In this document: piece by piece, positions 6,427 to 22,602 of the stretch
How the letters are laid out: each line of letters starts with the position of its first letter
How positions within the stretch are numbered: the first letter of the stretch is position 1
From: an uncultured Pseudomonadales bacterium
GTDB taxonomy: Bacteria; Patescibacteriota; Microgenomatia; UBA1400; PJMF01
Length of the DNA stretch: 43,657 bases
Direction: 5' to 3'
NCBI GenBank assembly: GCA_964437755.1
Contig: CAYTIA010000001.1
Span: 1-43,657 of the forward strand
Notes under the pieces: generated by a model
What the model saw: only the letters and a program-made list of their open reading frames with translations
Told to the model about the DNA's origin: nothing
The model's database searches: none
Translations under genes and position numbers: made by a program

Positions 6427-8238
6427 TTAAGAATCTTTTTGTTCAAGAACAGGAGGTGTCGCATAGCGGTCAATTGCACACGCTTGGAAAGCGTGAGCTT
6501 CACGGCTCCGTGGGTTCGAATCCCACCACCTCCGCATAATGGAACTAGCCTGTTTTGAGTACTCAAATTTGTTTGAATTACCAATCTTTTCTGTAGGTTC
6601 TAACGAGCCCACAGTTTCTAGCATTTCTTTTTTGGCTTTTTTAACAAGGTAGAATGGTTTATGCTCATCTATCAATATTTCTTTATTCATTACCTTTAGG
6701 TTCTTACCAAGTTTTGACATAATATATGTCTTTTTCTCGATACCACCATGGTCAAACCAATACCTAGCGTAACAGGCAAATTCAAAGGTTTCTTTGGATA
6801 ATTCAATCCACTGTTTCTGTCTTTCATTAACTGTGCTGAGTTGTTCGGTGATTTCTTTTTGTTCTTGAAGCAACTCTTTTTCTTGATCATCGTACATTTG
6901 TTGTCGCTCAAGATCTAAGTTTGTGTTATCTCTAGAAATCCTTAACCTTATTAAATTTCTCAAGCTTTGTTTATTTTGATCAAATCTATCTTGAAGCTGT
7001 TTAAAAACCCTTGTATCTTGTTCTTCTTCTTGATCATTAACCTCATTCAAATGATCTATAGCCCAGTCTTTAAAAGACTCAGGGATTTCGTAGTCACAAA
7101 GAACACTATCAATTTTAGTTTCAATCTTGTCAATTTCAATGCTACCTTGTGAGCAGTTTGGATGAACTTTTTTAGTACAACTATAGTATGTGTAGTGCAA
7201 AAGTGTGGGGTTATCCATATCCACGATTTTAAGATTACACTTTGGGCATCTTGTTCTTTTTTGTGTTTGTGCAAATTTTCTTTTACAACTTGAACAGATT
7301 ATTTGATGTTTTTCTTGGCAGGTAATAGACCCATCACATTCTCCACAAGTTAAAAGCTTTTTATATGGAAAGCTTTTATTTGTCGCATGTGTTCGTTTTG
7401 GTATGCCTAACCTTTGTTGAAGCGTATTAAAATCTTTTTCAGTCAGCATTGGCTTGTGCTTTCCCATTTTTTCTCCTTCAGATCTAACCATTAGTCCATA
7501 GTAGTATTCATCAGTAATCATCCTATACCAGGCTGATTTGGACAATGGTCTATTACCTCTTTTTGCCCTCTGAATAGTTCTAAATTTCCAATCGTTATTA
7601 AGTTTATTCAACGCCTGAATTGGAGTGTGGCTTCCATCGATTATTAACCTCATTGCATCTTGAATTAATGTAAATCTATCTTTATCAATATCTATGTAAG
7701 AAGCTTTTGTAATTGGATCAGTCATATTAATATAACCAACTTTAGCCAGTCCCGGCCACCAACCTTGTTCAAATTTTTCTCTATTTCCTCTTTTAACAAC
7801 ATCAGAATTATCGTCTGAAGATTTTTTACTCATCGCAAAATCTATTTGCAACATAAACTTATCGTTTGCATTATCTATTGAGATTGAAGATGGGGTCCTG
7901 ATTTCAACTAATTTTTTTGTATCTAGCAAATGAATAATCATTCCACCATCAACAGCATTTCTTGCTAATCTATTTTTGTGCCAAACTAAGATTCCATTCG
8001 CTTCACCATTACTAATTTTAGAAATCATTTCATTGAATTGAGGTCTTCCTAGCTTATAAGCACTTCCTGATTCTTTATATACACCAACTATTTTTAAATT
8101 CTTTTCTTGAGCAAAATCTGTTAATTCTCTGTATTGAGATGATAAAGATAGAATTTGTCTATCTTCGCCCTCCGTACTTTTTCTACAGTACATTAAGTAC
8201 TTTATGCTAACTTCTTCGTGTTTTATTTGTTTTTTCAT
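6427..8238 (-). CDS. Large serine recombinase (integrase); 3' end reads through the antisense tRNA
   Basis: Catalytic YCRKST, ESGSA..GRPQF and NRLARN motifs, recombinase domain, zinc ribbon and coiled coil. The tail MRRWWDSNPRS... is antisense tRNA. Confidence 0.93.
   Translation of the reverse strand: MKKQIKHEEVSIKYLMYCRKSTEGEDRQILSLSSQYRELTDFAQEKNLKIVGVYKESGSAYKLGRPQFNEMISKISNGEANGILVWHKNRLARNAVDGGMIIHLLDTKKLVEIRTPSSISIDNANDKFMLQIDFAMSKKSSDDNSDVVKRGNREKFEQGWWPGLAKVGYINMTDPITKASYIDIDKDRFTLIQDAMRLIIDGSHTPIQALNKLNNDWKFRTIQRAKRGNRPLSKSAWYRMITDEYYYGLMVRSEGEKMGKHKPMLTEKDFNTLQQRLGIPKRTHATNKSFPYKKLLTCGECDGSITCQEKHQIICSSCKRKFAQTQKRTRCPKCNLKIVDMDNPTLLHYTYYSCTKKVHPNCSQGSIEIDKIETKIDSVLCDYEIPESFKDWAIDHLNEVNDQEEEQDTRVFKQLQDRFDQNKQSLRNLIRLRISRDNTNLDLERQQMYDDQEKELLQEQKEITEQLSTVNERQKQWIELSKETFEFACYARYWFDHGGIEKKTYIMSKLGKNLKVMNKEILIDEHKPFYLVKKAKKEMLETVGSLEPTEKIGNSNKFEYSKQASSIMRRWWDSNPRSREAHAFQACAIDRYATPPVLEQKDS
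6452..6534 (+). tRNA. trnS: tRNA-Ser(GGA); CCA not encoded
   Basis: Acceptor GGAGGTG/CACCTCC plus discriminator G, anticodon arm CACGC-TT-GGA-AA-GCGTG, long variable arm GAGC-TTCACG-GCTC, T arm GTGGG-TTCGAAT-CCCAC. Confidence 0.97.
6527..6536 (+). repeat. attL core CACCTCCGCA (tRNA 3' end)
   Basis: Identical 10-mer at 21664-21673. Confidence 0.75.
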
Positions 8239-8250
8239 TTTATCCTTTTA

Positions 8251-8466
8251 TTAAATACTAATTTTGTTACTTGGTACACTATCTCTTGACTGGAGAGAGT
8301 AGCTTCTAAATATTTTTTCGTCAGAAACAGGTACTGGCTTTGTAATTTGACTCATGAATTTAAGAAGATCTTCAGCAAATGCTTCAGCATCATTCATTTC
8401 AATATTTGTATTGAAGTAGTTATCAAATGTTTTTTTAAAGCTAGTAACTGTTTCTTTCTTTAACAT
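8251..8466 (-). CDS. Small hypothetical protein between ATPase and integrase
   Basis: 71-aa ORF with 2-nt and 12-nt gaps to its co-oriented neighbours. Confidence 0.65.
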   Translation of the reverse strand: MLKKETVTSFKKTFDNYFNTNIEMNDAEAFAEDLLKFMSQITKPVPVSDEKIFRSYSLQSRDSVPSNKISI

Positions 8467-8468
8467 GT

Positions 8469-9986
8469 CTATGCAATAAACTTAACTTGGTTACTACTTA
8501 TTAATTTTGCATCTGTATATGCTTTGAGACTTGTAATATTTTCTTGAGTTTTACTGTCAATGCCGTCTTCTTGTTTAAAAGCTAGGTTTTCAATTCCTAT
8601 TACTCTTGATCCATTTTCTTTATCTTTATAAACAAGGATTTTGTAAGCACGCAAAGTTTGTTCATCTCTAGCAATATATTTCCACAACCAATTAGAGCCG
8701 TCAGGAAATCCTTTTGTGAGAGACAAATTAATAGCAAGTTGGTTTAGTTTGTCATAAAGTTCAGAAGGACTACTTTTCCATTCTTTTTTGTCTTCCATGA
8801 AAACGAGAATACACTGTGCAACAGTTGATGCTTCAAATGCTGTTTCGTGTTGCTTCTTAATGTTTGACAGAAAAACATTTTGAAAATGTTCCTGATCATG
8901 ACCAAAATAGATAGATGCAGTTACTGCACAATGGTAATAATCTGCCAATCGAGGTAATTCACTAATTTCAACTTCATCCTTAAAGGCCAAGACAGCAGAG
9001 ACAGTATCTAGTAAGGCTCCAAATATTTTTGGCTTTTTTAATGCAAAAGCTTTATTTAGTTCACTATCTCTTTTCCTTTGCGAACTATTGATTCTTTCTA
9101 GCTCTATAATTAAACTTCTATCTAGTAAATCTGCCCTTGTTGCAACTTGATCTATTCCATTCATTCCTACAACTCTTTTAAAGAAGTAAAGAATGTCATC
9201 ATCATTTGTGTATAAGGCTCTTTTGGAAAAAGCTGAGCCGGTTACAAATCTACAAAGAGCATCAGAAGTTTGCCAATTTAAATGGGACACATTATCAACA
9301 AAGAAACAATAATTGTGATCGGCTTGACGAATTAATTCTTCTTCTTTATTTTGAGGTGCGAGTAATGGTATACAACTTGGATCTATTAAATCTCTGATTC
9401 TTGCAAGCGTAGTACTTTTACCAGATCCTTGAGATCCATGTAAAAGTAAGATTGGTCTAGCTATATCCTCAAAAAAAGTTGTCGGCAGATATGTTTTAAG
9501 TAACAAATCTTGATCTTCGCCACGAACATTAATAAATTCATCTAGATCAGAAAGATCGCCACCATTCTCAGGGAGAACTTGTTTCTTTTGATGAGCAAAC
9601 CTACGAAAAAGCACGGGGGATGATTGTGTTATTTCCCAACCATCTTTTGTAATTTTTATAATATTTTTGTTATCTCCAATGTCATAAAAAATCTCATCAT
9701 CAACTTTGGCAATTCTATTATAAATTTGTTGATCTTCTTGAGAGCTAAGGGCAATACCTTCTAGAGTAGTAATAGCAGTATTTAATGAATCAGCTCTAAG
9801 CACTTTACCTGTATTATTCCAAAACATTTGAGATAAATATCTTTTTACAAACTTTGATTTTATTTGGTAGGCAATAAATCCATTTTCAACTACACAACAA
9901 GTATTTTGATGCTGGTCTGTAATAAATTCTGTATCCGAATCCAAAACCATACTAACTAGCATTTTTGCTAAACTATCACTTGGCAT
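8469..9986 (-). CDS. P-loop ATPase, SF3/AAA+ helicase-like mobile-element replication protein
   Basis: Walker A GSQGSGKST, Walker B FFVDN, sensor MNGI and arginine finger DLLDRS. Confidence 0.75.
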   Translation of the reverse strand: MPSDSLAKMLVSMVLDSDTEFITDQHQNTCCVVENGFIAYQIKSKFVKRYLSQMFWNNTGKVLRADSLNTAITTLEGIALSSQEDQQIYNRIAKVDDEIFYDIGDNKNIIKITKDGWEITQSSPVLFRRFAHQKKQVLPENGGDLSDLDEFINVRGEDQDLLLKTYLPTTFFEDIARPILLLHGSQGSGKSTTLARIRDLIDPSCIPLLAPQNKEEELIRQADHNYCFFVDNVSHLNWQTSDALCRFVTGSAFSKRALYTNDDDILYFFKRVVGMNGIDQVATRADLLDRSLIIELERINSSQRKRDSELNKAFALKKPKIFGALLDTVSAVLAFKDEVEISELPRLADYYHCAVTASIYFGHDQEHFQNVFLSNIKKQHETAFEASTVAQCILVFMEDKKEWKSSPSELYDKLNQLAINLSLTKGFPDGSNWLWKYIARDEQTLRAYKILVYKDKENGSRVIGIENLAFKQEDGIDSKTQENITSLKAYTDAKLISSNQVKFIA

Positions 9987-10305
9987 TCTGACCTCCTTCT
10001 ATTTTTATGGTTCTTGGATAAACTCCAATAATCATTGAATCCGTAATTTCTACCAAACATTTTTTATTTCTTAAGCGTTTAAAATTTACTTTTTTGGAAT
10101 CTGCCATAACTGCTAACTGGTAACAAAATCTAAAGAATTCATTGTTCCCAATGTCGTATCCTTCAGCTTCATGAGCTTTGAAAAATAAAATGTCATGTGA
10201 ATTAGCTGGTCCAATATGCACTTCAAAAACAGCTATGTGTACTTTTGTTGATAGAGTATTTGTTTGAAAATAATCTAGGAACTTTGCCTTATATTTTTTA
10301 ATCAT
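9976..10305 (-). CDS. Hypothetical protein
   Basis: 109-aa ORF with AAGGA RBS; overlaps the ATPase start by 11 nt. Confidence 0.65.
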   Translation of the reverse strand: MIKKYKAKFLDYFQTNTLSTKVHIAVFEVHIGPANSHDILFFKAHEAEGYDIGNNEFFRFCYQLAVMADSKKVNFKRLRNKKCLVEITDSMIIGVYPRTIKIEGGQNAK

Positions 10306-10429
10306 TGATTTCCTTTTTATCTTTGTTAATATTTTTTTATACGAACTTATCCTCCTTTTTTGATTCGCAAATATTTTTTACTAACACAATAATAAGGTCG
10401 TTTTTTGACCGATAATTGATTTTGGAGAT

Positions 10430-10453
10430 AAAAAGAAAACTGCCTGAGCAGTT
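10430..10453 (-). terminator. Putative intrinsic terminator
   Basis: Minus strand AACTGC-tcag-GCAGTT-TTCTTTTT downstream of 10493..11329. Confidence 0.45.
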
Positions 10454-10492
10454 ACGGACAAATTAGATAAAATATGGAATTATAAAGATGAA

Positions 10493-11329
10493 TTAAGCTT
10501 GACGAATTTTGGATCTTCGTGATTGCTTGCGAGTTTGTGATAATAATTCAGATTTTTCTTCGTCAGCTAATGATTCAAATTGATAACGACCAAACGCTGG
10601 ACAAAAGTCGTATTTAGATCCGTTTACATCAATTATGTATTTTGAAATAAAGTAAAATAAATCGTCTGCCTGCTGAACAATATCTTTTTTAAGTAATTCT
10701 GATTTATCCATATCGTCATCAAAGTTTTTAAGATTTAGTTTTTTGTATGCATCTAACAGTTGATCTTTTGAATAAGTAAATTTGATTGTTTTATTTTTTC
10801 CTTTAGATAGAGAAAGTAAGGCAAGAATAATTCTTTTAATTCTTTGAATATTAATTGATTTAAATGCATTGAATTTATTGCCCGAAAGTAAACTACCCGT
10901 AATAAATACCTGACCATTATTTTCGTATATTTCTAAAGTTTGCTCAAAACTTGGATCAGTTAAAGATTTGTCATATTTTTTTATTAGTTGATCTGAATTA
11001 ATATTTCTTTCATTTATATCTTGTAGCCAACCATCTAAATATCTTCCATCAAGAACTTGTATGTAATAGTCTTTTGTATTAACTCCATTTATTTTATTCT
11101 CTTGTATATCAACAATAGAAATCATTTGTTCTTCAGTTTCTAAGCGTTTTAAATAATCGCCCAAAATTAAATCATCAAAATAATCTTTCAAATATTTATG
11201 AGAGGCATTAATTACTAATGGATGACCAATAGCAGTTACCTCATAAATTTGATCTAAAACCATTACTAATTTGTCTAATAAATCTTGACCTGTAATCATA
11301 AAGGTATTGTAGTACTTACTATGTATCAT
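10493..11329 (-). CDS. Hypothetical protein
   Basis: 278-aa ORF with no motif recognised; start may be the second Met. Confidence 0.65.
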   Translation of the reverse strand: MIHSKYYNTFMITGQDLLDKLVMVLDQIYEVTAIGHPLVINASHKYLKDYFDDLILGDYLKRLETEEQMISIVDIQENKINGVNTKDYYIQVLDGRYLDGWLQDINERNINSDQLIKKYDKSLTDPSFEQTLEIYENNGQVFITGSLLSGNKFNAFKSINIQRIKRIILALLSLSKGKNKTIKFTYSKDQLLDAYKKLNLKNFDDDMDKSELLKKDIVQQADDLFYFISKYIIDVNGSKYDFCPAFGRYQFESLADEEKSELLSQTRKQSRRSKIRQA

Positions 11330-11569
11330 GGGAAGGTTAACCTAATATAAAATGAATTATTTTGTTATTTATTAATAACCTTTAAACCTTTGAATATAAC
11401 TGAACAACAAGCTTGTTTTATATAGTACCCCCCCCCATTATGTTTGTTTAATAAATGTATTTTTGTCAAAGCTGTTGATAGCAGAAATAGCTTCTTGAAA
11501 AATTTGCTACGTAAGGTTTTTGGACACTAAAGTCAGTAAAGACACTAAATGATATAAATGTGATTACGT

Positions 11570-11962
11570 ATGTACTCTCGAGAGAATCCGTTTATAAATA
11601 AAATCATGAACAATGATTTTAAAAAAATATACCAGACTTTAAATACTATTTTTGATTTATCAAAAGATGAATCTTTTATATACTTAAGTGATGCTAAAAA
11701 AATATGTTTTAGAAAAATAAGTACTAATAATAAATCATTTTTTGAAGCAGATATTATATTTTTCGAAAATACATCTAATTGCTTAAGTCCCTCAGAATTT
11801 AGAGTTAGAGTTTGGACTAATAACTTAGTTGAGATAATCATGTTTAAGTTATCTGAATTTAGTGAGTATAAAAACATTTACAAATTTAGTAATGGGTATG
11901 ATATACCTAATAAGTTATTACAGCTTGAGGCTAATCAAGCATTTCTTGGTATTTTTCAATAA
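11570..11962 (+). CDS. Hypothetical protein
   Basis: 130-aa low-GC ORF; start uncertain. Confidence 0.5.
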   Translation: MYSRENPFINKIMNNDFKKIYQTLNTIFDLSKDESFIYLSDAKKICFRKISTNNKSFFEADIIFFENTSNCLSPSEFRVRVWTNNLVEIIMFKLSEFSEYKNIYKFSNGYDIPNKLLQLEANQAFLGIFQ

Positions 11963-12059
11963 ATAAAAATTTTACGTATTATTTAAACAACATTCATCTC
12001 TGTTATAATTTCTAATTAACACTGGAATGGGTATAATTCACTATTGAGGAATTTTAGGA

Positions 12060-12776
12060 ATGAAAAGAAAGAGTAACATTTTAACAAAATTAGAAAACAA
12101 AGAAGAAATTCAAGAATTTTTGGATAAACCAACTCTTTCTATAGCAGAAGCATTAACAGGATTGCTTGCTGATAATGGACTCATACCAAAATCCTATATT
12201 TTGTCAGCAGGAAGAATTGTACAAGGAGCAATTAAAGGTAAACTTTTAACACAGTTAGGCCTTGAGCTTTCTGAATATAGAAAAAAAGGTAGAATAAAAG
12301 AAGACTACTTTGCTTCACATAAAAATCAAGTAACCTTACTTGAATTGCTGGAGTTTATTGATACCGAAATCCCAGACGAAGAAATATTTAATGCCGTTAA
12401 ATCTATTTTTTTCGCTAGTGTTTCAACTGACTCTAATGTACAAAAAGAAGAGGTTGCATATCAACTTTTGCTTTTGTGTAAAAAATTGAATTCAATGGAA
12501 ATTTTGATTATAAAAACTTGTTATGAAGTATATTTAGGAAAGCACATAGATATAAATACAGGAATAAATAGTTATGGTGAGTGGGTAAATGCAATTTCTG
12601 AAAAAATTGGTTATGAATTGCCAGAGCTAGTGAGTTCATCAGATGACAAGTTAGTTAATTTAGGATTGTTGTCTTCTAGAAGTTATTCAGATAAATCTGG
12701 TATAAATCCAAGTAAAGAATTTAGATTAACTAAATTAGGTATAAAGCTTTGTAATTTTATTACAGAATTTAATTAG
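12060..12776 (+). CDS. Abi-alpha/DUF4393-like protein (tentative)
   Basis: Helical N-terminus and C-terminal winged-helix-like pattern LVNLGLL...FRLTKLGIKLCNFI. Confidence 0.5.
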   Translation: MKRKSNILTKLENKEEIQEFLDKPTLSIAEALTGLLADNGLIPKSYILSAGRIVQGAIKGKLLTQLGLELSEYRKKGRIKEDYFASHKNQVTLLELLEFIDTEIPDEEIFNAVKSIFFASVSTDSNVQKEEVAYQLLLLCKKLNSMEILIIKTCYEVYLGKHIDINTGINSYGEWVNAISEKIGYELPELVSSSDDKLVNLGLLSSRSYSDKSGINPSKEFRLTKLGIKLCNFITEFN

Positions 12777-12783
12777 GATATTT

Positions 12784-13164
12784 ATGAACAAAACCCTTTT
12801 ACAAAAAGCACAAGCATTAGCAAATAAAAAAGAACTTACTTCTGACGTAACTGTAGGACATGTTGGTTGCGCTTTAGAAACAAAATCAGGAAAAGTATAT
12901 ACAGGCTTAAGCGTAGGTACTTCTGCAAATCTTGGATTTTGTGCTGAAGTATGTGCAATGGCTCAAATGATAAAAGAGGGCGAAACTGAAATAAATGAAA
13001 TTGTTGCTACTGGACCTAATGGAGAATTAATTACTCCATGTGGAAGGTGTAGAGAACTTATGTTTCAAATAAATAGAAATAATTTAAAAGCTAAAATCTT
13101 ACTTGCTGACGATAAATTTATCACTTTAGAAGAACTCTTACCTCATAGATGGCAAGACTATTAG
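12784..13164 (+). CDS. Cytidine deaminase family protein (three-Cys zinc type)
   Basis: VGCAL..KSGKVYTG, FCAE and TPCGRCRE motifs. Confidence 0.88.
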   Translation: MNKTLLQKAQALANKKELTSDVTVGHVGCALETKSGKVYTGLSVGTSANLGFCAEVCAMAQMIKEGETEINEIVATGPNGELITPCGRCRELMFQINRNNLKAKILLADDKFITLEELLPHRWQDY

Positions 13165-13230
13165 AGCGAAAAAAGAGTCTAGTTGTTCAATTTTCTTTAT
13201 TATTTGCAAAAACATTGATATCATGTTTGT

Positions 13231-13770
13231 ATGAAAATTACATACAAACACACACTCCCTGCTGATAAGCTATCTAAGTTTGATATCCATAGAATGGGAC
13301 CAGAAGCCATCAGTCTTTTAGTAAAGTTAGATCACCTGAAAATAGTTATGGCATCTCCTCATGAAAAAAAGGTGGATTTAGTCGTAACCAATACAGATTC
13401 AAAACAAATATATAAAATTAAAGTTCTTACTACCAAAAATCCATCTTCAAATCAAGGAGTTGGAACTGGTTTAAGTTGGATGGTCGGTGAAATAGATAAA
13501 AAAACAATAAGTGACGACATGTTTTTTTGTTTTGTTCATCTAGTAATTAATAAAGATGAATTAGAATTTAGATTTTTTATTGTGCCAAGTAAAGATGTTT
13601 CTGAGTATGTTGAAAATGCATTTAATTTCTGGCTCAATGAGGTAAACACTAGAGATGAGAAAAACACTGTAAAGAAATTTTTACTCGGAGAAAAAGGCAA
13701 AGAATATCCCTCTGGGTTTAAAACACTCATACAAGAAGACTATGAAGATAACTGGGATCTATTAAAGTAA
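13231..13770 (+). CDS. PD-(D/E)XK restriction-endonuclease-fold-like protein with degenerate active site
   Basis: VDLVV...KIKVLT, FFCFVHL, FRFFIVPSKDV and YEDNWDLL pattern. Confidence 0.5.
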   Translation: MKITYKHTLPADKLSKFDIHRMGPEAISLLVKLDHLKIVMASPHEKKVDLVVTNTDSKQIYKIKVLTTKNPSSNQGVGTGLSWMVGEIDKKTISDDMFFCFVHLVINKDELEFRFFIVPSKDVSEYVENAFNFWLNEVNTRDEKNTVKKFLLGEKGKEYPSGFKTLIQEDYEDNWDLLK

Positions 13771-13903
13771 CGGCTTATCAGTGATCCTTTTCTAATTCTG
13801 TTGTCATCTAGAACCATCGTTTTAGCACTTTCTACATTTCCATGCATAACTTATCATCTAAACAAATGAAAATCCTACGAGCGAGGTATCGTTTACAAAG
13901 ATT

Positions 13904-14617
13904 TTATAAGTAACTCATTTTAAGCTTGTCTAACTTAACATCCTTGAAAATAATTGGATGAACATAGTAATTTGATTTAGTTAACAACTCTTGATTTTCT
14001 CTAGGGTTAGAAAATTTTAGTGCATCCCAGTTAAATAACTCAAAGTCTTCTTTAAGCATATCTACATAAACTGCATCGTCAAAAACTGACTTGCCATAAG
14101 AATCAATGAACTCTGTAGTTATAGCTACTTTAATTTCATTCACATTTTCATAATTAAATGCTTCTTCTGCAAATTTTATATAGAACTTCCAGATACTATT
14201 AGCCATATCTGTATTGTTGATAAATGTGTAATCTGCTGTTGAAATTTCAGCTACAACAAAACCTGTTTCCTCTTCATAACTGAGTGTCACATCTTGGTCA
14301 ATCTTATCTTTAGCTAAAATATCCAACCTCTCTTCTAAAGAAAGATCATTTTGAGAGGTCTCGGTTTCTTCTTGTGGTTTCTCTACTTTAACTTCTGTAA
14401 CTTCTGTAACTGAATCAGTTGGGGGTTGGTCACTAGAGTCATTTGTTGATGCTCCAACCATCGTAACGAAAATTAATCCAATAACAATAACTTTTGCTAG
14501 AGTTGGCCATTTTGTTTTCCAAGTTAAATACATCAACGTAAAGGGAAGAAAAATAATTGCTGGAATTAGCTTCCATGTTTTATACCAAGGCTTGGACGAT
14601 TGAGTGCCGGCTGTCAT
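13904..14617 (-). CDS. Membrane-anchored extracytoplasmic hypothetical protein
   Basis: KPWYKTW plus two hydrophobic segments, acidic linker and globular C-domain; AAGGAG RBS. Confidence 0.7.
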   Translation of the reverse strand: MTAGTQSSKPWYKTWKLIPAIIFLPFTLMYLTWKTKWPTLAKVIVIGLIFVTMVGASTNDSSDQPPTDSVTEVTEVKVEKPQEETETSQNDLSLEERLDILAKDKIDQDVTLSYEEETGFVVAEISTADYTFINNTDMANSIWKFYIKFAEEAFNYENVNEIKVAITTEFIDSYGKSVFDDAVYVDMLKEDFELFNWDALKFSNPRENQELLTKSNYYVHPIIFKDVKLDKLKMSYL

Positions 14618-14654
14618 AACGCTCCTTAAATGTTGTATTTATTAGCAACGATGT

Positions 14655-14778
14655 GCCTCAACATTGAAAGGACACCCCGTAGTCCTCAGCCGGCAAGCGT
14701 CGAACTCGATAGGGATGTCCTATACAAAGTTCGACACTCTTTTAAAGTGTTTTTAACTTGCCGGCTGAATATTGAAGC
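14655..14778 (-). ncRNA. Candidate structured RNA (multi-stem, possible pseudoknot or switch)
   Basis: Perfect 12-bp stem 14686-14697/14757-14768, 8-bp stem 14699-14706/14728-14735, outer stem 14655-14665/14768-14778 and cross-pairing 14670-14678/14712-14720. Mismatches resolve as G-U only on the minus strand. Confidence 0.55.
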
Positions 14779-14817
14779 TATTATATATTGATAATCAGAA
14801 AAATACACTGCTCATGA

Positions 14818-15693
14818 TCAATTTATTTTAAAAATTGATTTGACCAAAATTTTTGCTTTTTTTTCAAAATCAAATTTAAACAAATTGTAAAAATAATCTG
14901 GAACTAAATTATTATTTAATCTAGATCTAGCTATTTCATTTTGCAAATCTCTATGACTAATATTTGATTGAATATTACTACTTGCTTTAGACACAATTAT
15001 CTTATCAGCGATGCATTTTAGTGAATGCAAATTACTAGATGCACTAAAGTTATTTTTAATTTTTGAAATAAAAAATGAATAAATTGGTAAAAATAGTGAG
15101 CTTATGTATAAAAGATTTTGCAAAAATTCTTCTGAATAAAGCGAAAATAAAATCATGGTAATTATTCCCAATATGAGAAAAAGAAAAATTCCATAGTATT
15201 TTCTCAATTTTGAATCCCACCAACAATTTATTTTTTGACAAATGTAGCAGGCAGATGAAAAGTCAATATCTTTGTTTACAGCGTACCAATCTTTTAAATC
15301 ATCAAAGTTTTTATATTTTTCTAAGTAGCTATTAGAAGCAATTATTATTTCATCAATATCGGGTTTGTTGCCCAACAATACTTTGTTCCATGGGATTTTA
15401 TATAGTTTACAATCGAATATTTCCTGAATCTTTGTGGCTGATGTAGTCTTATTATCTATTGCGGGTCTTATTATAAAAAGGTCAATAAAAAAGATAAATA
15501 TTGAGTATACTGCAGCAATGTATTTTACATTTGTATAATATTCGACAACAAAAGCCATTAACACAACTCCTAAAACAGTGAATGTAAATTGAAACAACTC
15601 AAGTTTTTTTGCTTCTGAATAAATAAAACGTTGTGCAGCTAAAAAACTCAAATTTTGAGTAATATTTTGATTGTAGTGAATTTTATTGTTCAT
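14818..15693 (-). CDS. CBASS S-4TM (SMODS-associating 4TM, Cap16-like) membrane effector
   Basis: LAAQRFIYSEAK, KIQEIFDC..YKIPWN, LKDWY, CQKINCWWDSKLR and VPDYFY motifs; two TM hairpins; 9 nt downstream of the CD-NTase. Confidence 0.85.
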   Translation of the reverse strand: MNNKIHYNQNITQNLSFLAAQRFIYSEAKKLELFQFTFTVLGVVLMAFVVEYYTNVKYIAAVYSIFIFFIDLFIIRPAIDNKTTSATKIQEIFDCKLYKIPWNKVLLGNKPDIDEIIIASNSYLEKYKNFDDLKDWYAVNKDIDFSSACYICQKINCWWDSKLRKYYGIFLFLILGIITMILFSLYSEEFLQNLLYISSLFLPIYSFFISKIKNNFSASSNLHSLKCIADKIIVSKASSNIQSNISHRDLQNEIARSRLNNNLVPDYFYNLFKFDFEKKAKILVKSIFKIN

Positions 15694-15702
15694 ATTTATT
15701 CT

Positions 15703-16578
15703 TTAATAGTAGTATGCTGGAAATTCGCCAGCAAAGAGTAATTTCCACCATATAAATGCATCTGACGTTTTTTCTGCCATTTCAGCTTCTCTTGCTTTAT
15801 TTGCTCTAATCAAAGCAGTGTTTATTTTTGACTTAGCTTCAGTGAGTTTAAGAAAGCTAAAGGTTGGAACAATTGCGCCAGATACTCCAGTAGGATCATA
15901 CAAGGTAGCAAGATTAGTTGAATCTAAATACTTAAAAAAATTACGTAAGTCAATGCTATACAAAATGGAACTTTCACTTTCACAAAACTTAGCAGCTCTC
16001 ATTTCAAGATAAAATGAAGAAATAGGGACATTGTTGTAATATTTCCATGCTTTTATAAACCTTATTAATGGTTTTAGCTTATAACCAAGTTTAACATTTA
16101 GATTTCTAACATATCTTCCATGTATGTCTGGACTTGATTTCATCCAACCTCCATTGCAATCTGGAATATCATAAATGAGCTGACGATCAGCAGTTGCACT
16201 CATGTAATCTGCGGGAACAATCTCAGTCGCTTCTTGTGGATTTGAGCCAAATGGCACAACAACTGCTGGACTACTAATATGAACTCCCGTGTTTGGAAAC
16301 CTTTTATCTAAAGCATCTTTAATAAGTCTCAAGGTATAAGCTGAGTTTTGTTTTAGCACGTTTCCAGATAACGAAGCAAAATAGTCCACATCACTATATC
16401 CAGTAATACTGGTGCCGTTACCAAATGAGCCTGATCTAAAAAATCGCTTCAAAGTAAAATTTGCCTTCAAAGAATTTTCAATAGATGTTCTATGTCTTTT
16501 TGATGATTCTGATTCTGTACTAGTTGGTGTTAGTCTACTGTGAAAGTCAAGAAATCCTTGATTAATTGTTCTTGGCAT
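15703..16578 (-). CDS. cGAS/DncV-like nucleotidyltransferase (CD-NTase, SMODS) of CBASS
   Basis: SGSFGNGTSITGYSDVDYF (GS...DxD), EIVPA and LIRFIKAWKY..VPISSFYLE. Start moved to ATG 16578 (MPRT), which has an AAGAAGGA RBS. Confidence 0.9.
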   Translation of the reverse strand: MPRTINQGFLDFHSRLTPTSTESESSKRHRTSIENSLKANFTLKRFFRSGSFGNGTSITGYSDVDYFASLSGNVLKQNSAYTLRLIKDALDKRFPNTGVHISSPAVVVPFGSNPQEATEIVPADYMSATADRQLIYDIPDCNGGWMKSSPDIHGRYVRNLNVKLGYKLKPLIRFIKAWKYYNNVPISSFYLEMRAAKFCESESSILYSIDLRNFFKYLDSTNLATLYDPTGVSGAIVPTFSFLKLTEAKSKINTALIRANKAREAEMAEKTSDAFIWWKLLFAGEFPAYYY

Positions 16579-16613
16579 TGTTACTATATTTCCTTCTTTA
16601 AAACTATTTGATT

Positions 16614-16678
16614 TGCTATTGGTATCAAAATGATAGCAGTGTTTTGTGTTGATGTCAACATTATGATTGTGGTAAACT
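16614..16678. promoter_or_regulatory. Divergent promoters with palindromic operator candidates between CBASS and the XRE regulator
   Basis: Minus-strand TTGACA(16658-16653)-17nt-TATCAT(16635-16630); plus-strand TGgTAAACT (16670-16678). Palindromes TGTTGA-TG-TCAACA (16647-16660) and TATCA-AAA-TGATA (16623-16635). Confidence 0.7.
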
Positions 16679-16684
16679 ATCAAT

Positions 16685-17011
16685 ATGAAATATACAGATC
16701 TTGGTAAAAAAATTAAAGCTTTAAGAGAATCTAGGAAATTTACAAAACAAGAGTTTGCAGAAAAACTTGGCTACCAATCAGATACAGCTATTCATCTTAT
16801 TGAACGAGGTAAAAGAAAATTATCTATTGATAAACTTATGAAAGTTGCAGAGATATTTGAGATATCTATTTCAGAATTGATAACAGAAAATACTGAAATA
16901 GAAAAGCTAAATGTAGTAACAGCTTTGAGGTCAGATGGGGCATTAGATGAAGAAGACATTGATCAAATTTCTTCTTTTATTGATTTTATTAAGCAGAAAG
17001 GTACAAAATAA
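16685..17011 (+). CDS. XRE-family HTH repressor (CapH/ImmR-like)
   Basis: LGKKIKALRESRKFTKQEFAEKLG...IERGKRKLSID HTH_3 pattern. Confidence 0.9.
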   Translation: MKYTDLGKKIKALRESRKFTKQEFAEKLGYQSDTAIHLIERGKRKLSIDKLMKVAEIFEISISELITENTEIEKLNVVTALRSDGALDEEDIDQISSFIDFIKQKGTK

Positions 17012-17572
17012 GTGGACTACAATGATGAAGATACATCATATATTGAAGAGCTTGAGGAAAAGAAGACAAAGATAAGATATATAAAAAAAAGTGCTCAACA
17101 ACTTGTATCAGATGTCGGTTCAGATGTTCCAATAATTCTTCGTGATATTATTAAAAAGGTTCAAGAACAGAAAAAAATCTCAATTAATTGCAAGCCTATG
17201 GATCTTAGTAATAAATTTTCTGGACAAATAGTTATATATGGGAATGCTGTGGGAATTATTTATAATGAAAATCACTCAAGAAATCGACAAAGATTTACCG
17301 TTGCACATGAATTAGGCCATTTGATACTTGGACATGAGTTTAAAATTAAACAATATAATGAAATTATAAAATTTAACACTAAATCTCCAATAGAAAGAGA
17401 AGCAAACATATTCGCTGCAGAATTACTAATGCCTAAAAATATTTTAACAAAATATCTCAAAGAAAATAAAATCACTAGTGTGTCTGATCTATCAATTAAA
17501 TTTGAGGTGAGTGAAGAAGCTTTATGGTTTAAAATCAGTTCTGATAACTTGATGAAACATTTCACTTATTAA
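17012..17572 (+). CDS. ImmA/IrrE-family zinc metallopeptidase (CapP/ImmA-like)
   Basis: RQRFTVAHELGH (HExxH) and EREANIFAAELLMP. GTG start immediately follows the XRE stop codon. Confidence 0.9.
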   Translation: MDYNDEDTSYIEELEEKKTKIRYIKKSAQQLVSDVGSDVPIILRDIIKKVQEQKKISINCKPMDLSNKFSGQIVIYGNAVGIIYNENHSRNRQRFTVAHELGHLILGHEFKIKQYNEIIKFNTKSPIEREANIFAAELLMPKNILTKYLKENKITSVSDLSIKFEVSEEALWFKISSDNLMKHFTY

Positions 17573-17626
17573 AATATATTTGTCTTTTAAATTTAAAACT
17601 AATAAAAGAGGATAAATAATTGATTT

Positions 17627-17649
17627 TAACTTGGTCCACACTTCCGCCA
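17627..17649 (+). repeat. Degenerate att-like scar TAACTTGGTCCACACTTCCGCCA
   Basis: Resembles the attR arm TAACTTGGTACACACACCTCCGCA (21650-21673) and ends like a tRNA-Ser 3' end (TTCCGCCA). Confidence 0.6.
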
Positions 17650-17841
17650 GAGTCCCTTGGTTGCTCCATAACTTATCCCCCATGCTTAAATAGATTGATA
17701 TTATCTGTAATTTTTCTATAAAAGAATGAGGGTCTCAAATAGTTTGTTAATAGTAAAAAATGCTGAGGTATTTTTAAAAGGTGAAATGTTTGGTTCTGAG
17801 GTGACTAATTTCGATCGGTTATTATGAATGCCCTCTTGTCA

Positions 17842-17937
17842 TTGATTATGTATAAGTTTAACATGTACAATGTTAGTAAGAATTGTTAAGTAAAATTGAA
17901 TCAGGACAAACACTAAATGGAAGAATTGTTAACAATT
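17842..17937 (+). promoter_or_regulatory. Putative RM promoter and operator repeats
   Basis: TTGATT-18nt-TACAAT; palindrome TAACAT-N5-ATGTTA (17859-17875); AAGAATTGTTAA at 17878 and 17921; palindrome AATTGTTAACAATT (17924-17937). Confidence 0.5.
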
Positions 17938-19137
17938 ACTGAGGTATGTAACCTCTTAAAGGTACATCCAAATACGCTTAGAAACTGGGATAAACAAGGT
18001 CTGCTAACTGCCGTGAGAATTGGCGTACGTGGTGATAGACGTTATCTCAAGCAAGATATTGTCGATCTAGCCTCATCCAATATAGATATGCGTGAAAATT
18101 CTGGACCTACGGTGCTTGATTTATTCTCAGGTTGCGGAGGCTTATCCTACGGCTTTGAGATGGCTGGATTTAAGGTGCTTGCTGGGGTTGACAACTGGGA
18201 TGATGCGTTAAAAACATTTAAATATAATCACAAAAATTCAAGAATACACAATTTAGATTTATTCAATTTTAACTTGGAAGAATTTGAAGATACTGCCAAT
18301 TATAAAGGCAAAGTAGATGTCATAGTTGGTGGCCCACCTTGCCAAGGTTTTTCTATTGCAGGACATAGGCTTAAGGATGATCCAAGAAATAGCCTATACA
18401 AAGCATTTGTTGACTTTGTTGAATTCTACAAACCAAAGGTTTTCTTGCTTGAAAATGTTCCTAATATTTTAGCTATGGATGGAGGTTCAATAAGGGATGG
18501 AATTATAAAAGATTTCGAGGCGCTTGGGTACATGATTACCTATAAGAAGTTGTTAGCATCTGATTATGGGGTGCCTCAATCACGAAGAAGAGCAGTGTTT
18601 GTTGGTTCAAAAAAGGGAACATTTGAATTTCCTGAGGCTAGTTTTTCAAGACCTGTTACGAGTAAAGAGGCTATCTCTGATTTACCGGAAAATACACTTC
18701 AGGATGGGGCTGCATATGTCTCAGAACCCTTGAGCGATTATCAGAGGATAATGAGGGAAGCGAGTTCTGGTATATATAATCATGTCGCTACTGTACATAC
18801 CTATACTACACAGAGCATAATATCTCTAGTTCCCGATGGAAAAAACTTTAAGAGCCTTCCCCGTGAACTACAAAATACCCGAAAGGTCAACATAGCATGG
18901 ACAAGAATCAACAGTCAGAAACCAAGTATGACTATAGACACTGGGCACAATCACCATTTTCATTACCAGTTCAATCGAGTACCGACTGCTAGAGAATCCG
19001 CACGTCTACAGTCTTTCCCAGATAATTTTATTTTTTTAGGGGGAAAGACAAGTCAATTAAAGCAAATTGGAAACGCAGTTCCACCGCTAATGGCTAAAGT
19101 ACTTGCCAAGGAGATAAAGGAGCAATATGAATTATAA
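17917..19137 (+). CDS. C5 cytosine DNA methyltransferase with N-terminal MerR/excisionase-like HTH
   Basis: N-terminal LLTITEVCNLLKVHPNTLRNWD; DLFSGCGG, GGPPCQGFS, ENV, QSRRR and QIGNAVPP motifs. Confidence 0.93.
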   Translation: MEELLTITEVCNLLKVHPNTLRNWDKQGLLTAVRIGVRGDRRYLKQDIVDLASSNIDMRENSGPTVLDLFSGCGGLSYGFEMAGFKVLAGVDNWDDALKTFKYNHKNSRIHNLDLFNFNLEEFEDTANYKGKVDVIVGGPPCQGFSIAGHRLKDDPRNSLYKAFVDFVEFYKPKVFLLENVPNILAMDGGSIRDGIIKDFEALGYMITYKKLLASDYGVPQSRRRAVFVGSKKGTFEFPEASFSRPVTSKEAISDLPENTLQDGAAYVSEPLSDYQRIMREASSGIYNHVATVHTYTTQSIISLVPDGKNFKSLPRELQNTRKVNIAWTRINSQKPSMTIDTGHNHHFHYQFNRVPTARESARLQSFPDNFIFLGGKTSQLKQIGNAVPPLMAKVLAKEIKEQYEL

Positions 19138-20518
19138 TCACTTAAATCAATATCGAGCGACAATCATACGAGGCAAGGCTAAAAATGCACTTGATGACCT
19201 TCTTCCCACTTATGCACAAATTATTGAAGAAATCACCCCTGTGAGTGTAGGTGAATTCCATCATAGATTCAACAAAGCTTTACATTTAATTATTCCTAGT
19301 GCGGAAAAAAAGACTTTAGATAACCATAGAACTGAGATTGTTGGAAAGTTATTCGGAATGTACTACGAAGACGAAGGCTCAATATTTATGTCTGAGCGTA
19401 CTCAAAAGTTCTTAGCCGACGGCGACCAGCCTGCATTTTTCAAAGATTGGTGCTTCAGATTTCAATTTCCTAATGGTCTCGATAAAATACAGACATTGCT
19501 CGATAAAATTGAGCATGACGTAAATATACGGCCATTCTGTTTTATAGTTAAATTAGTAATGGATGCATATCAACAAGATATTGTCTTAAACCAAAACGAA
19601 ATTGGTTATTATGCTATGAATAACCTTGATGTGCTAAGTGGAACAGCAACCACAGATGAAGTGATTGATCAAATCAAAGAGGATCGAAACAGCCGAATCA
19701 CTAGAAGAGTTAGCTACATAGGGAAAGCTGAGAGCTACAATAGTCAGCATATTCGTGAACAGCTAAATTATCTTGAACTAGCAAATCTTATACGCAATAA
19801 AAGTGGCAACATCTTCCCTAACTTAAAGGAAAAAAATGCTCTCGAAGAGTTTGCACAAAATGCCTACAGTGTCGGGTTTAATACAAAAAAATATGACCTT
19901 GATAATGAAACAGAAAAAGCACGATTTTATCATGACTGGCAGGTCTACTATTCAAGTATCACAAAAGGAATAACTGAAGAATTTTCCACAAGTATTGAGG
20001 CATTAGAGTACGACATAGATGAATCTGGGAAACAGGTCACAAAAGCATATGCCGTGGATACTATGCTGATTGGGGATGAAGGAGAAGCACTTGTATATGA
20101 TTATGAGAAAAAGCGTGTGGGGAAATATGATTCACGCCTTACTAACAAAATTCATATGCTAGGGAAGACAAAGGGGTTGGGATATGACATACAGTCGATT
20201 TTTGCAGATGAGAGTGAAGATCCAGAGTTTGTAAAATACATTGAAGTTAAGTCAACTAAAAGAGTAACCTCCCCTGATAAAGATAATAACGAGTGGACTG
20301 ACACTCTTAATGTTACTCGAAACGAATGGGTAGCTGCTCAACAACACCGTGGCAGTTATGAAATATATAGAGTATATTTCACACAAGCTGGACCTGAAGT
20401 TTTTATTATAAAAAACCCCTATGAAAAGAATGAGAATAAAGTTATTCGCACAATACCAACAACCTATAGGCTAGACTTTAACGCAGAAGCTATAGATAAG
20501 GCGTTCACTTATGCCTAA
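19127..20518 (+). CDS. Putative type II restriction endonuclease with C-terminal DUF3883-like PD-(D/E)XK domain
   Basis: GDEGEALVYDYE, GLGYDIQS, YIEVKST and TRNEW motifs; overlaps both methylases. Confidence 0.8.
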   Translation: MNYNHLNQYRATIIRGKAKNALDDLLPTYAQIIEEITPVSVGEFHHRFNKALHLIIPSAEKKTLDNHRTEIVGKLFGMYYEDEGSIFMSERTQKFLADGDQPAFFKDWCFRFQFPNGLDKIQTLLDKIEHDVNIRPFCFIVKLVMDAYQQDIVLNQNEIGYYAMNNLDVLSGTATTDEVIDQIKEDRNSRITRRVSYIGKAESYNSQHIREQLNYLELANLIRNKSGNIFPNLKEKNALEEFAQNAYSVGFNTKKYDLDNETEKARFYHDWQVYYSSITKGITEEFSTSIEALEYDIDESGKQVTKAYAVDTMLIGDEGEALVYDYEKKRVGKYDSRLTNKIHMLGKTKGLGYDIQSIFADESEDPEFVKYIEVKSTKRVTSPDKDNNEWTDTLNVTRNEWVAAQQHRGSYEIYRVYFTQAGPEVFIIKNPYEKNENKVIRTIPTTYRLDFNAEAIDKAFTYA

Positions 20519-21521
20519 TGCAATATACAGTGTAGTATCACTTTTTGCTGGATGTGGTGGTGGCGACTTAGGTATGAAGGGTGGCTTTAATTATATTAAC
20601 AAAGAATATAAATCCCACCCTCTTTCATTTGCTCATATTTCTGACTTTGACAGACATTGTGTAGTTACTCTAAATGCTAACTTTGGAACAGCGGCAGAAC
20701 ACCTAGATGTTCGGGACCTGAGCTTAGATGGTTATAGTGCTGACATAGTTGTTGGTGGATTTCCATGTCAGTCATTTAGCACTGTTAATCCTACAAAAGA
20801 TCCTTATGACGACAGAGCTCAGCTCTATAAGGAGATGCTCAGGATTGTACGACAGACTAAACCGAAAGTAGTGATAGGCGAGAATGTAAAGGGTCTTGCA
20901 GTGCTAGATAAGGGAAACTTTTTAAAGCGAATTGTTAAAGAATTAGAAGCAGAAGGTTATAAAGTTAAGACCCAAATACTCAATGCTGCAGATTACGGCG
21001 TGCCACAAAAACGTCAAAGACTGTTTATTGTCGGTGTACGAAATGATATAGGTATAGAGTTCATGTTTCCTGAGCCAACTCATATAAATAATTGGATTCC
21101 ACTTTCTAAGGTAATAGATAGTCTCGTGCCCAAAGATGATAAATACTATTTCAGCAAAAGGGCTGTTGAAGGAATGAAGAATGCTAAAAACAATATGAAA
21201 CGAGGTTTGGCACAGAGTCTTGATGGACCATGCTTAACCATTACATCTCATTTAGCTAAAGTAAGTTTGAATTCTAGAGATCCCGTTCTCATGGTTGACC
21301 CAAAAAAAGAATTATATAGACGATTCACTGTTCGTGAGGCGGCAAGAATTCAATCATTTCCTGATGATTTTGAATTTCCTGTTAGTGATCATCAGGCTTA
21401 CAGACAAATAGGCAACGCTATACCACCAGTTTTAATGTGGAATATAACAAATGAAGTGATAGAACTCCTGAATAAATATGAAGAGAGAAGTATAGTAAAT
21501 AAATCTAAAAGTATCGTTTAA
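20511..21521 (+). CDS. C5 cytosine DNA methyltransferase (second)
   Basis: SLFAGCGG, GGFPCQSFS, ENV, QKRQR and QIGNAIPP motifs. Confidence 0.93.
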   Translation: MPNAIYSVVSLFAGCGGGDLGMKGGFNYINKEYKSHPLSFAHISDFDRHCVVTLNANFGTAAEHLDVRDLSLDGYSADIVVGGFPCQSFSTVNPTKDPYDDRAQLYKEMLRIVRQTKPKVVIGENVKGLAVLDKGNFLKRIVKELEAEGYKVKTQILNAADYGVPQKRQRLFIVGVRNDIGIEFMFPEPTHINNWIPLSKVIDSLVPKDDKYYFSKRAVEGMKNAKNNMKRGLAQSLDGPCLTITSHLAKVSLNSRDPVLMVDPKKELYRRFTVREAARIQSFPDDFEFPVSDHQAYRQIGNAIPPVLMWNITNEVIELLNKYEERSIVNKSKSIV

Positions 21522-21663
21522 GACGGCTAAAATATTACCATCTTATGCTCCAGCAGAGTTTTGGGCTGTAATTTAATGATAGTAAGCCTAAATTGGATTA
21601 TTTAATAAAAAGGATGAAGAATTAAATCTTAAACCAATAAAATAGGTTCTAACTTGGTACACA

Positions 21664-21673
21664 CACCTCCGCA
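21664..21673 (+). repeat. attR core CACCTCCGCA
   Basis: Identical to 6527-6536; the element-side arm is in frame with the integrase after excision. Confidence 0.75.
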
Positions 21674-21844
21674 ACAATCGAAAAGTTATGGTAGATCCGT
21701 CCTTTTAGCTAGAATGGGTTGATGGGGCTTGCTAAATTTCCTTGGTTTGAAGATTTTTCATTTAAAAAAATAATTTATTATTTCATTTAACGTCAGGGAT
21801 ATACTAAGTTTTTCTGGAACGTAGTGGAAGAAAAATTTGAGTGA

Positions 21845-21945
21845 AGCAAGAGCCGAGAGCTGAACCGCATATCCCTTGTTATACGAGGGTGAGGAGCTAT
21901 AGCGACGAAAGCGCAGCGTCCCCTTGAGCGTTTAAGTTTGGGCCG
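21845..21945 (+). other. GC-rich palindromic noncoding element (REP/MITE-like or ncRNA)
   Basis: Nested stem AGCT..CCGCA..CCCTTGT-TAT-ACGAGGG-TGAGG-AGCT (21858-21898) plus GACG/CGTC (21904-21920). Confidence 0.35.
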
Positions 21946-22602
21946 TTATTTTTTTCCATTCCATTCATCAAAGAATTCTTGAAGAAATAATTCCATAAAT
22001 TTATGTCTTTCATCAGCCATCTTTTTTGCTGTTTCTGTGTTCATATTCTCTTTTAATTTCAAAAGTTTACTATAGAAATGATGTACTGTTGAGGGATCTT
22101 TTTCAGATTCATCAAAGACTTCTCTATCAAAAGGCTTTTCTGGAATCCACATTGTTACTTGATTTGCTCCTCCAAATGAAAAAGTTCTTCCAATTCCAAT
22201 TGCACCAATTGCATCTAAATTATCAGCATCTTGTAAAACTAATGTTTCAATATCATTTACAGTTTTTCCATTTTCAGAAAAATTGTATTCTTCATGATAT
22301 TCAATGCAGTGAAGAACTTTTTCTTTTTGTTCTTCAGTCAAATTAGTTTTATCAAGAATTTCTTTAACTTTTGGTAATGAATCCTTTGGAGAGCAAAATT
22401 TTCCAGTTTCCTTTTGAATGATTCTATGAACATCATGTAGAAATGCAGAAACAGCAATAATTAATTTATTACCACCTTCTTTTTCTTGAAGTGTTAAAGC
22501 AGTATTCATAGTACGCTTTAAATGATAAATATCATGCCCACTACTTTCTTCATGAAAAAGAACTTTAACTTCTTCTTCAAGCTGATGAATTATTTTTTTC
22601 AT
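21946..22602 (-). CDS. HD-domain phosphohydrolase (YedJ/YpgQ-like)
   Basis: GHDIYHLKR, AFLHDV, QDADNLDAIGAIGIGRTF and HFYSKLLKL motifs; start placed at MKKII. Confidence 0.88.
   Translation of the reverse strand: MKKIIHQLEEEVKVLFHEESSGHDIYHLKRTMNTALTLQEKEGGNKLIIAVSAFLHDVHRIIQKETGKFCSPKDSLPKVKEILDKTNLTEEQKEKVLHCIEYHEEYNFSENGKTVNDIETLVLQDADNLDAIGAIGIGRTFSFGGANQVTMWIPEKPFDREVFDESEKDPSTVHHFYSKLLKLKENMNTETAKKMADERHKFMELFLQEFFDEWNGKK

Follow-up and report, generated by a model that had tools for sequence, protein, structure and literature searches.

Transfer RNA genes are the classic targets of tyrosine integrases, and serine integrases, which are widely used as DNA-insertion tools, are usually described as splitting protein-coding genes. 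The tyrosine integrases of Mx8 (intP/intX) and SSV1 reportedly have the attP core inside their own open reading frame (ORF) and a tRNA gene as target, and integration is said to change the integrase gene in the former and to split it in the latter. Here we analyse a window of 43,657 nucleotides (the whole stretch of DNA under study, contig CAYTIA010000001.1, from a 1.03 Mb genome in 28 contigs with about 33% G+C) that probably contains a mobile island of about 15.1 kb (window positions 6537-21663), inserted by a large serine recombinase (LSR) at the 3' end of a tRNA-Ser(GGA) gene, with an exchange of the integrase's C-terminal tail that is most likely a by-product of att-site geometry. The island shares with Mx8 and SSV1, as these are said to be, an attP core inside the integrase ORF and a tRNA target, but it differs from them in that the chemistry is that of a serine rather than a tyrosine integrase, only the extreme tail is exchanged, and the ORF stays whole. 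Like Islander-type islands and tycheposons it has replication-like and defence cargo at a tRNA 3' end and a repeat of the tRNA end at its far boundary; however, tyrosine-integrase islands typically repeat tens of nucleotides where just 10 nt are repeated here, and a whole large clade has serine-type integrases.

Among described LSRs, those of LI/A118, SPbeta (SprA), phiC31, Bxb1 and TP901-1 are like the enzyme of this island in domain order as judged across its family (catalytic resolvase, a recombinase domain that some relatives show, and zinc ribbon with a coiled-coil insert), in the short identity of their att sites (10 bp here) and in an attP that adjoins the integrase gene. A further likeness is to the LI integrase, for which an excerpt of the published account places the zinc-ribbon-domain (ZD) motif of attB 5 bp nearer to the central crossover than that of attP (PMC3783163). 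Our locus departs from these textbook members in that a tRNA 3' end is targeted and the target gene is regenerated instead of being split, in that the shifted motif is the tRNA T-loop, and in that the attP core lies inside the integrase ORF, so that the stop codon falls at or past the crossover. By comparison, site-specific serine recombinases insert within genes and disrupt them according to an excerpt of a review on integrative mobilizable elements (PMC5704250). Serine-recombinase elements near tRNA genes are not unheard of, and we found no report of serine integrases overlapping tRNA genes in Patescibacteria, or of a T-loop mimic, in a literature search whose coverage was incomplete and excluded supplements; for a large serine-recombinase survey (PMC10083194) the search listing has no instance of the word "tRNA". 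The features on which the following analysis turns are these (window coordinates).

6452-6535, forward strand: tRNA-Ser(GGA) gene, the host half of attL, intact after integration (ARAGORN; Rfam RF00005, 57.6 bits)
6527-6536, forward strand: attL copy of the core, CACCTCCGCA, made up of the 3' strand of the acceptor stem, the discriminator and CA (from the sequence)
21664-21673, forward strand: attR copy of the core, CACCTCCGCA (from the sequence)
8238..6427, reverse strand: large serine recombinase (integrase), 603 aa in the integrated state (ORF, Pfam, PHROG, profile match and structural model)
6513..6521, forward strand: tRNA T-loop motif GGTTCGAAT, 5 nt from the core, the proposed ZD motif of the B arm (from the sequence)
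21645..21653, forward strand: T-loop mimic GGTTCTAAC of the P arm, separated from the core by 10 nt (from the sequence; the P arm is identical in the related genome G017)
21588..21663, reverse strand: predicted source, once the island is excised, of the free-state (attP) tail CVYQVRTYFIGLRFNSSSFLLNNPI* (translation)
21674..21765, forward strand: host flank (from the B' arm outward), conserved and multi-copy, an element about 95 nt long that is found after tRNA-Ser genes in related genomes (sequence comparison)

The boundaries of the island are, on this sequence, the core copies at 6527-6536 and 21664-21673, where a sequence-only reading had placed them, and several results bear that placement out, among them the core repeat, the contiguity of tRNA and flank in a related genome, and an attR-like junction in that same genome. 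The 10-bp core occurs exactly twice in the window against 0.01 copies expected, and none of 100 shuffles contained it twice. The tRNA-Ser(GGA) gene is the only tRNA that ARAGORN calls across the window, and with this intact gene at one end of the island, a 10-nt copy of its end (21664-21673) at the other, and an integrase gene that adjoins the tRNA, the locus carries the Islander signature. In G017, a genome of the same family and another genus, contig C20 has a tRNA-Ser(GGA) gene at 2332-2417 followed directly by a homologue of window 21664-21783 at 2408-2528 (79% identity over 121 aligned positions); the tRNA match and the flank match share exactly the 10-nt core, and to judge from this alignment the arrangement is that of an empty site. 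The attR-like junction lies 4.8 kb further along the same contig, at 7220-7350, and consists of a 23-nt island end, the core and a second copy of the flank; its 23-nt P arm is identical to window 21639-21661. Eight sequencing runs were available, all as assembled contigs from which rare variants are dropped, and four of them were compared with the window; contigs from two sludge-metagenome runs (X1 and X5) span attL without differences. A link between 6536 and 21713 in contigs of these runs also speaks for the boundaries, within the limits given below.

Domain content and a profile match to integrases of solved structure identify the enzyme as a large serine recombinase. Residues 16-159 match the Resolvase catalytic domain (PF00239, 6e-21), the protein matches phage integrase family phrog_95 (1.5e-46), and S21, invariant in a 15-sequence alignment of the family (A1), is by its position in the domain the putative catalytic nucleophile. 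Resolvase is found in all 15 members of A1, Zn_ribbon_recom (PF13408) in 10 and Recombinase (PF07508) in 9; the A1 profile matches the SPbeta integrase 9dxh_A over profile positions 58-480 (1.7e-10) and also the TP901-1, TnpX and phiC31 integrases. Eight cysteines (C298, C301, C315, C318, C331, C334, C354 and C362) are invariant in A1. In the AlphaFold model (mean per-residue confidence, pLDDT, 78) one can recognise catalytic and middle domains, a zinc region rich in beta structure and a pair of long helices; the pair, at 387-497 (helices 387-434 and 443-497), is as expected of the coiled-coil. Only serine-recombinase domains were found in the integrase by Pfam, PHROG and profile matching, and a Pfam scan of 18 island ORFs reported no tyrosine recombinase domain. 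At E <= 1e-30 the integrase has 392 relatives in the database searched; the top 120 are 556-707 aa in length, and the few that are named carry the labels Levybacteria, WWE3, Pacebacteria and "Patescibacteria group".

The integrase ORF runs antisense through the tRNA-Ser(GGA) gene and ends ...SIMRRWWDSNPRSREAHAFQACAIDRYATPPVLEQKDS* (also written ...SKQASSIMRRWWDSNPRSREAHAFQACAIDRYATPPVLEQKDS*). On the integrase strand the core forms codons M568, R569, R570 and W571, and the antisense tRNA encodes residues 571-603 and the stop (6528..6427). Translation of the reverse strand from 21665 to 21588, in frame with the core, gives CVYQVRTYFIGLRFNSSSFLLNNPI*. The predicted integrated tail thus differs from the predicted free-state tail: with the attP core inside the ORF the product is altered by integration, and the C-terminal tail is, as translated, swapped upon integration into the tRNA-Ser 3' end. 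In these respects the sequence-only reading stands, since it had described a serine integrase with an att core inside its 3' end (the Resolvase and phrog_95 matches and the position of the core over codons 568-571 agree), a read-through of the whole antisense tRNA in the integrated state (the 603-aa ORF), and, residue for residue, the free-state tail obtained by joining the 21664-21673 copy.

That reading had also called for a survey of homologues for DSNP versus VRT endings. We aligned the integrase with its 120 best relatives (n = 121), cut each protein at the column of residue 570, and numbered tail codons from the codon that lies over the tRNA CCA (usually TGG, W; ATG in the window). Both endings were present, and the tails fell into the following classes.

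tRNA-antisense tail (DSNP type, D/E-S-N at codons 6-8): 70 of 121; 6 to 145 aa past column 570, median 17
Stop at most one residue after column 570: 39 of 121; 0-1 aa
Free-state tail (VRT type, V/I-R-T-like at codons 8-10): 8 of 121; for example VDEVRTYF, IYDVITYF and IDAIRTFW
Other: 4 of 121; various

The window's predicted free-state tail, VYQVRTYF, is of the VRT type. In P0002 and P0003, the nearest relatives (570 aa, 88% identity), the protein finishes at ...SIMRR, and the sister attR of G017 reads, in the same frame, TGA and then VYQVRTYF; because of these two observations we take the free-state stop of this lineage to be a TGA that straddles the core edge. The window copy has TGT where G017 has TGA, a one-base difference at 21663.

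The two tail types are, as we read the DNA, a single motif in two reading frames. The T-loop mimic of the P arm sits 5 bp further from the core than the real T-loop does, and the distance from the motif to the end of the CCA-equivalent codon is 16 nt in the real tRNA and 21 nt for the mimic, the latter in the window and in two relatives (L078 and L083). A shift of 5 bp alters the frame and so produces the two tail types. L078 is a viral contig of IMG/VR without a neighbouring tRNA, and its integrase ends ...LLGDLDDVRTYGY; the L083 integrase ends ...WLFIGEQVRTAILV, a free-state (VRT-type) tail, again with no tRNA in the locus. The motif falls at the same codons in all eight VRT-type proteins. 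The natural sites of this clade show an LI-like 5-bp shift on the tRNA-side arm, the arm (tRNA side and P arm) on which the offset was examined. L083 lies on contig C4 of genome G280 (integrase at 15896-17626), in a genome bin, and the contig has a second serine recombinase 18 kb from it; L083 may have been binned with the genome as an element that is not integrated.

Overlap with a tRNA gene proved to be a recurrent trait of the relatives. An integrase match at E <= 1e-20 was found in 80 of 140 genomes of the family, and in 22 of the 30 family loci that were fetched, the window included, the integrase ORF overlaps an antisense (convergent) tRNA gene by 10-87 nt; of the eight loci without overlap, four run off a contig end. 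Among 401 sampled genomes of the phylum 108 have a match at E <= 1e-80, and the integrase overlaps a tRNA gene in 23 of 29 new phylum loci, so that, combined, the overlap is seen in 44 of 58 relatives' loci. The target tRNAs are those for Ser (GGA, TGA, CGA and GCT), Pro, Met, Trp, Asn, His, Leu, Gly, Gln, Asp and Lys. On these comparisons the clade is spread across a phylum of small-genome bacteria (labelled Patescibacteria or Candidate Phyla Radiation (CPR)), and its integrase 3' end routinely lies on a tRNA 3' end. Four integrases that are more distant (L047, L049, L051 and L054; 37-41% identical across the N-terminal half) and lie on tRNA genes for Leu, Gly and Pro read the T-loop in another frame and have tails ...GIEPS..., which suggests a second subgroup with a different register between ORF and tRNA. 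A scan of IMG/VR with the family alignment gave 216 pattern-matching stretches, of which 4 passed tblastn and one (L078) was a true full-length relative; on this count either the collection contains few members of the clade or the elements are not viral.

These observations can be joined in the following scheme. The attP site would lie across the last integrase codons, its P' arm being the coding sequence for ...KQASSIM, its core coding for M-R-R-W, and its P arm lying at the far end of the island. Recombination of attP with attB (the tRNA 3' end and the downstream flank) would regenerate the tRNA and replace all that follows codon 570. One DNA-binding domain, probably the zinc ribbon by analogy with the LI integrase, would read the T-loop in attB, and the same domain would read the mimic in attP, which is 5 bp more distant from the crossover; with a motif register like that of LI integrase, the crossover dinucleotide should fall near the middle of the 10-bp core. 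The two motif positions would lie in different frames of the integrase strand and yield a DSNP tail when the element is integrated and a VRT tail when it is free. The working protein would end at about residue 570, and the tails would be by-products of att-site sequence. Extended to the phylum, this describes an LSR clade specialised on tRNA genes, in which the ZD reads the universal T-loop, attP carries a decoy 5 bp further out, and the stop codon lies at the crossover; we put this wider version forward tentatively, as a proposal with slightly less than an even chance of being right. If it is true, retargeting between tRNA species (at least eleven are seen) would need changes mainly near the acceptor-stem core, and the clade would be a natural modular family of tRNA-landing-pad integrases. 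The 3' end of the integrated int gene would also lie head-on to a strongly transcribed tRNA gene, which could silence int without any role for a peptide tail.

Several points weigh against this account. The window's integrase taken alone (P0001) passes only the Resolvase model in Pfam, and PF07508 Recombinase does not reach E 0.01. Neither an excised circle (attP) nor a same-strain empty site was seen in the assembled contigs of the four runs, from which rare variants are dropped; since the runs exist as contigs only, this says nothing for or against excision. Contigs of X1 and X5 do join 6536 to 21713 through 39 letters of variant flank, but the sides of these joints are just 26-27 nt long and the flank differs, so that they come from related sequence and not from this strain; further joints in the run contigs (6479 to 21712, 6535 to 8425, and 15676 to 23163) have sides of 21-22 nt. 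The free state of the eight VRT-type proteins and of P0002 and P0003 was deduced from protein tails, save for L078 and L083. A mirror-image motif on the P' and B' arms is not convincing, as judged by eye only, and the pair ATCGAA (B') and GGAAC (P') was rejected as a mirror T-loop motif, the distances not being symmetric; the P' arm is moreover also coding sequence, so that DNA and protein constraints are inseparable there. The neutrality of the tails is itself argued from their non-conservation. Confident modelling stops near residue 546, and pLDDT is below 50 at 547-572 and 575-603, yet the segment 547-570 (window 6529-6600, reverse strand) contains an LEPxK motif whose E547 and P548 are invariant in A1, and this conserved, low-confidence extreme C-terminus may still play a role. 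The last residues before the core (W/M, L/R, R, G/D) are the antisense of CCA and the acceptor stem; protein and DNA constraints are for that reason entangled in this segment.

The far att copies of the relatives weigh on the same side. We searched the stretches of 18 relatives, 2.5-20 kb long, with the window as positive control, and for 15 relatives' loci with a nearby tRNA no far copy was found within the 5-20 kb fetched. The longest exact repeats at 16 loci with a nearby tRNA were chance-level 8-12-mers only; in the window itself such a search ranked a chance 11-mer above the true 10-bp core. A search for motif plus core recovered the window and G017 and gave no candidate in the 10 other relatives scanned, 5 loci having been left out for want of a T-loop motif match. 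Because the far copies were not found, the free-state tails of those relatives cannot be computed from their DNA.

We weighed three other explanations. The one that survives best, although we consider it unlikely, is that the island is a fixed and decaying remnant, immobile, whose integrase and tail have no present function and in which the change from TGA to TGT is a sign of decay. The loss in the window of the free-state stop that the relatives keep fits such a history, as do the integrase-less remnant with the same attR in G017, the failure to recognise a recombination directionality factor (RDF), and the lack of an excision junction in the contigs of the four runs, where, however, rare excision would be invisible. 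Decay is harder to reconcile with a 603-aa ORF that is uninterrupted and keeps all family-invariant residues, S21 included, with att arms and a 10-bp core that are intact, and with cargo ORFs that are full length and have strong domain matches.

The second explanation, which the sequence-only reading had proposed, is that the tail exchange is a selected switch, built in so that tRNA-encoded and island-encoded tails differ in directionality, activity or stability. The exchange is real and recurrent across the clade, the tRNA is read in a conserved frame (70 of 121 proteins have D/E-S-N at codons 6-8), and the segment before the core is conserved as well (LEPxK, with its invariant E547 and P548). 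Frame conservation is nevertheless accounted for by fixed att-site geometry, and the tails themselves behave as though set by the host tRNA: their length (6-145 aa past column 570) and sequence track it, and even the six relatives on tRNA-Met genes divide into four that stop 13 nt into the tRNA (...LLRD*) and two that read through all 70 nt and beyond. Essentially tailless proteins make up 39 of the 121, in the closest relatives (88% identity), as in the sister attR of G017, the stop comes at the edge of the core, free-state tails have in common only the three codons that lie on the DNA mimic, with variable length and sequence elsewhere, and the tail, with a pLDDT of 32-47, lies past the confidently modelled part of the protein. 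Sequence conservation thus argues against an altered activity of the exchanged-tail product of the Mx8/SSV1 type. A selected switch is in our view very unlikely; that part of the sequence-only reading finds no support, the idea is probably wrong, and the tails are most likely by-products.

The third explanation, that the 10-bp repeat is not the recombination site and that another recombinase inserted the island or its true boundary lies elsewhere, draws on the shortness of the repeat (serine integrases need just a 2-bp overlap, so that a repeat alone is weak evidence) and on the multi-copy nature of the flank beyond 21673, but it is extremely unlikely in the face of two core copies against 0.01 expected, the tRNA contiguous with the flank in G017, a second junction there with an identical 23-nt P arm and core, no other recombinase domain reported in the 18 scanned island ORFs, and a homologous integrase that abuts a tRNA in the same way at 44 of 58 relatives' loci.

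The more interesting result is not the tail of one protein but, at the level of the clade, what these sequence comparisons present as a phylum-wide set of serine integrases that land on tRNA 3' ends, keep their own 3' end on the site and display a 5-bp shift. Many independent natural site pairs with the same shift would test the structural model in which one DNA-binding domain tells attP from attB by a 5-bp displacement. A large natural collection of serine integrases able to insert at tRNA 3' ends and leave the gene unharmed would also offer landing pads, the tRNA genes, in every genome.

The remaining ORFs of the island include the following.

8251..8466, reverse strand: 71-aa ORF upstream of int (no Pfam match; weak match to phrog_25209, function unknown, 5e-4)
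8469..9986, reverse strand: 505-aa P-loop protein (sub-threshold DUF5906 and AAA matches)
12060..13164, forward strand: Abi_alpha-like ORF (below the Pfam cut-off) and an ORF with a cytidine/dCMP deaminase domain (Pfam)
14818-15693, reverse strand: four-transmembrane (4TM) effector of a cyclic-oligonucleotide-based anti-phage signalling system (CBASS) (PADLOC 2.2e-62)
15703-16683, reverse strand: CBASS cyclase (PADLOC 2.4e-112)
16685-17011, forward strand: CapH-like helix-turn-helix protein (PADLOC capH 3.8e-16)
17012-17572, forward strand: CapP-like M78 peptidase (PADLOC capP 3.2e-32)
17917..21521, forward strand: type II restriction-modification system, with a 5-methylcytosine (m5C) methylase, a BpuJI-like endonuclease and a second m5C methylase (Pfam; PADLOC REase_II 6.2e-148)

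The 71-aa ORF had been named as an RDF candidate, for which we find no support: apart from its weak PHROG match, it has a single counterpart, at 30% identity, in one other genome among the fetched loci. No Pfam or PHROG family match identifies an RDF among the island ORFs; RDFs are diverse, and we do not conclude that one is absent. A homologue of the 505-aa P-loop protein, 33-34% identical, lies upstream of the integrase in another genome (G149), and this protein is possibly a replication or primase-helicase-like module of the island. The CBASS module (14818..17572) has Pfam support as well, and its CapH/CapP-type regulators are divergent from the cyclase and effector. It adjoins the BpuJI-like restriction-modification module, defence cargo in a genome of about 1 Mb. 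Compact islands of this kind show a route by which small-genome bacteria gain defence systems such as CBASS and restriction-modification.

The flank element to the right of the island has the consensus ACAATCGAAAAGTTCTGATAGACCCGTC...GGTTGATGGGGCTTGCTAAATTTCC... and is found also at nine further loci (L020 to L023 and L025 to L029). At least five family genomes have it, each with two copies or more (about 80-86% identity), and it is placed after several different tRNA-Ser genes or after fragments that resemble a tRNA-Ser 3' end. We rejected it as a structured RNA: Rfam gives no match in window 21500-22000 except a chance-level one to U6atac (E 0.78), and nine copies have a weak consensus fold (-9.4 kcal/mol) in which 1 of 19 pairs covaries. 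Two contigs of the window's own genome (G000; loci L004/L029 and L025) have the element at their start: contig C10 has at 51-145 a second tRNA-Ser, 77% identical to the GGA one, that runs into the flank element, and contig C15 starts with the flank element and carries another serine recombinase at 1247-2164 (34% identity over query residues 7-325). The assembly of this genome seems to break at the flank repeat, and for that reason a second island may sit at C10/C15. In G017, the stretch of contig C20 from tRNA-flank to attR-like junction (L075, 2523-7350) holds five ORFs and no integrase, the ORFs being Peptidase_C39-like, NAD-synthase-like, a carbon-nitrogen (CN) hydrolase, a pyridoxal-phosphate (PLP) decarboxylase and an ATP-grasp protein; the stretch resembles a remnant without an integrase, or else a captured gene cluster that has a surviving P arm at its boundary. 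Finally, window 21838-21955, the segment of the chance-level U6atac match, is intergenic, has a G+C content above that of its surroundings and precedes an HD-domain gene; contigs of other runs have 1-nt deletions at 21898/21899 and loose ends at 21885.

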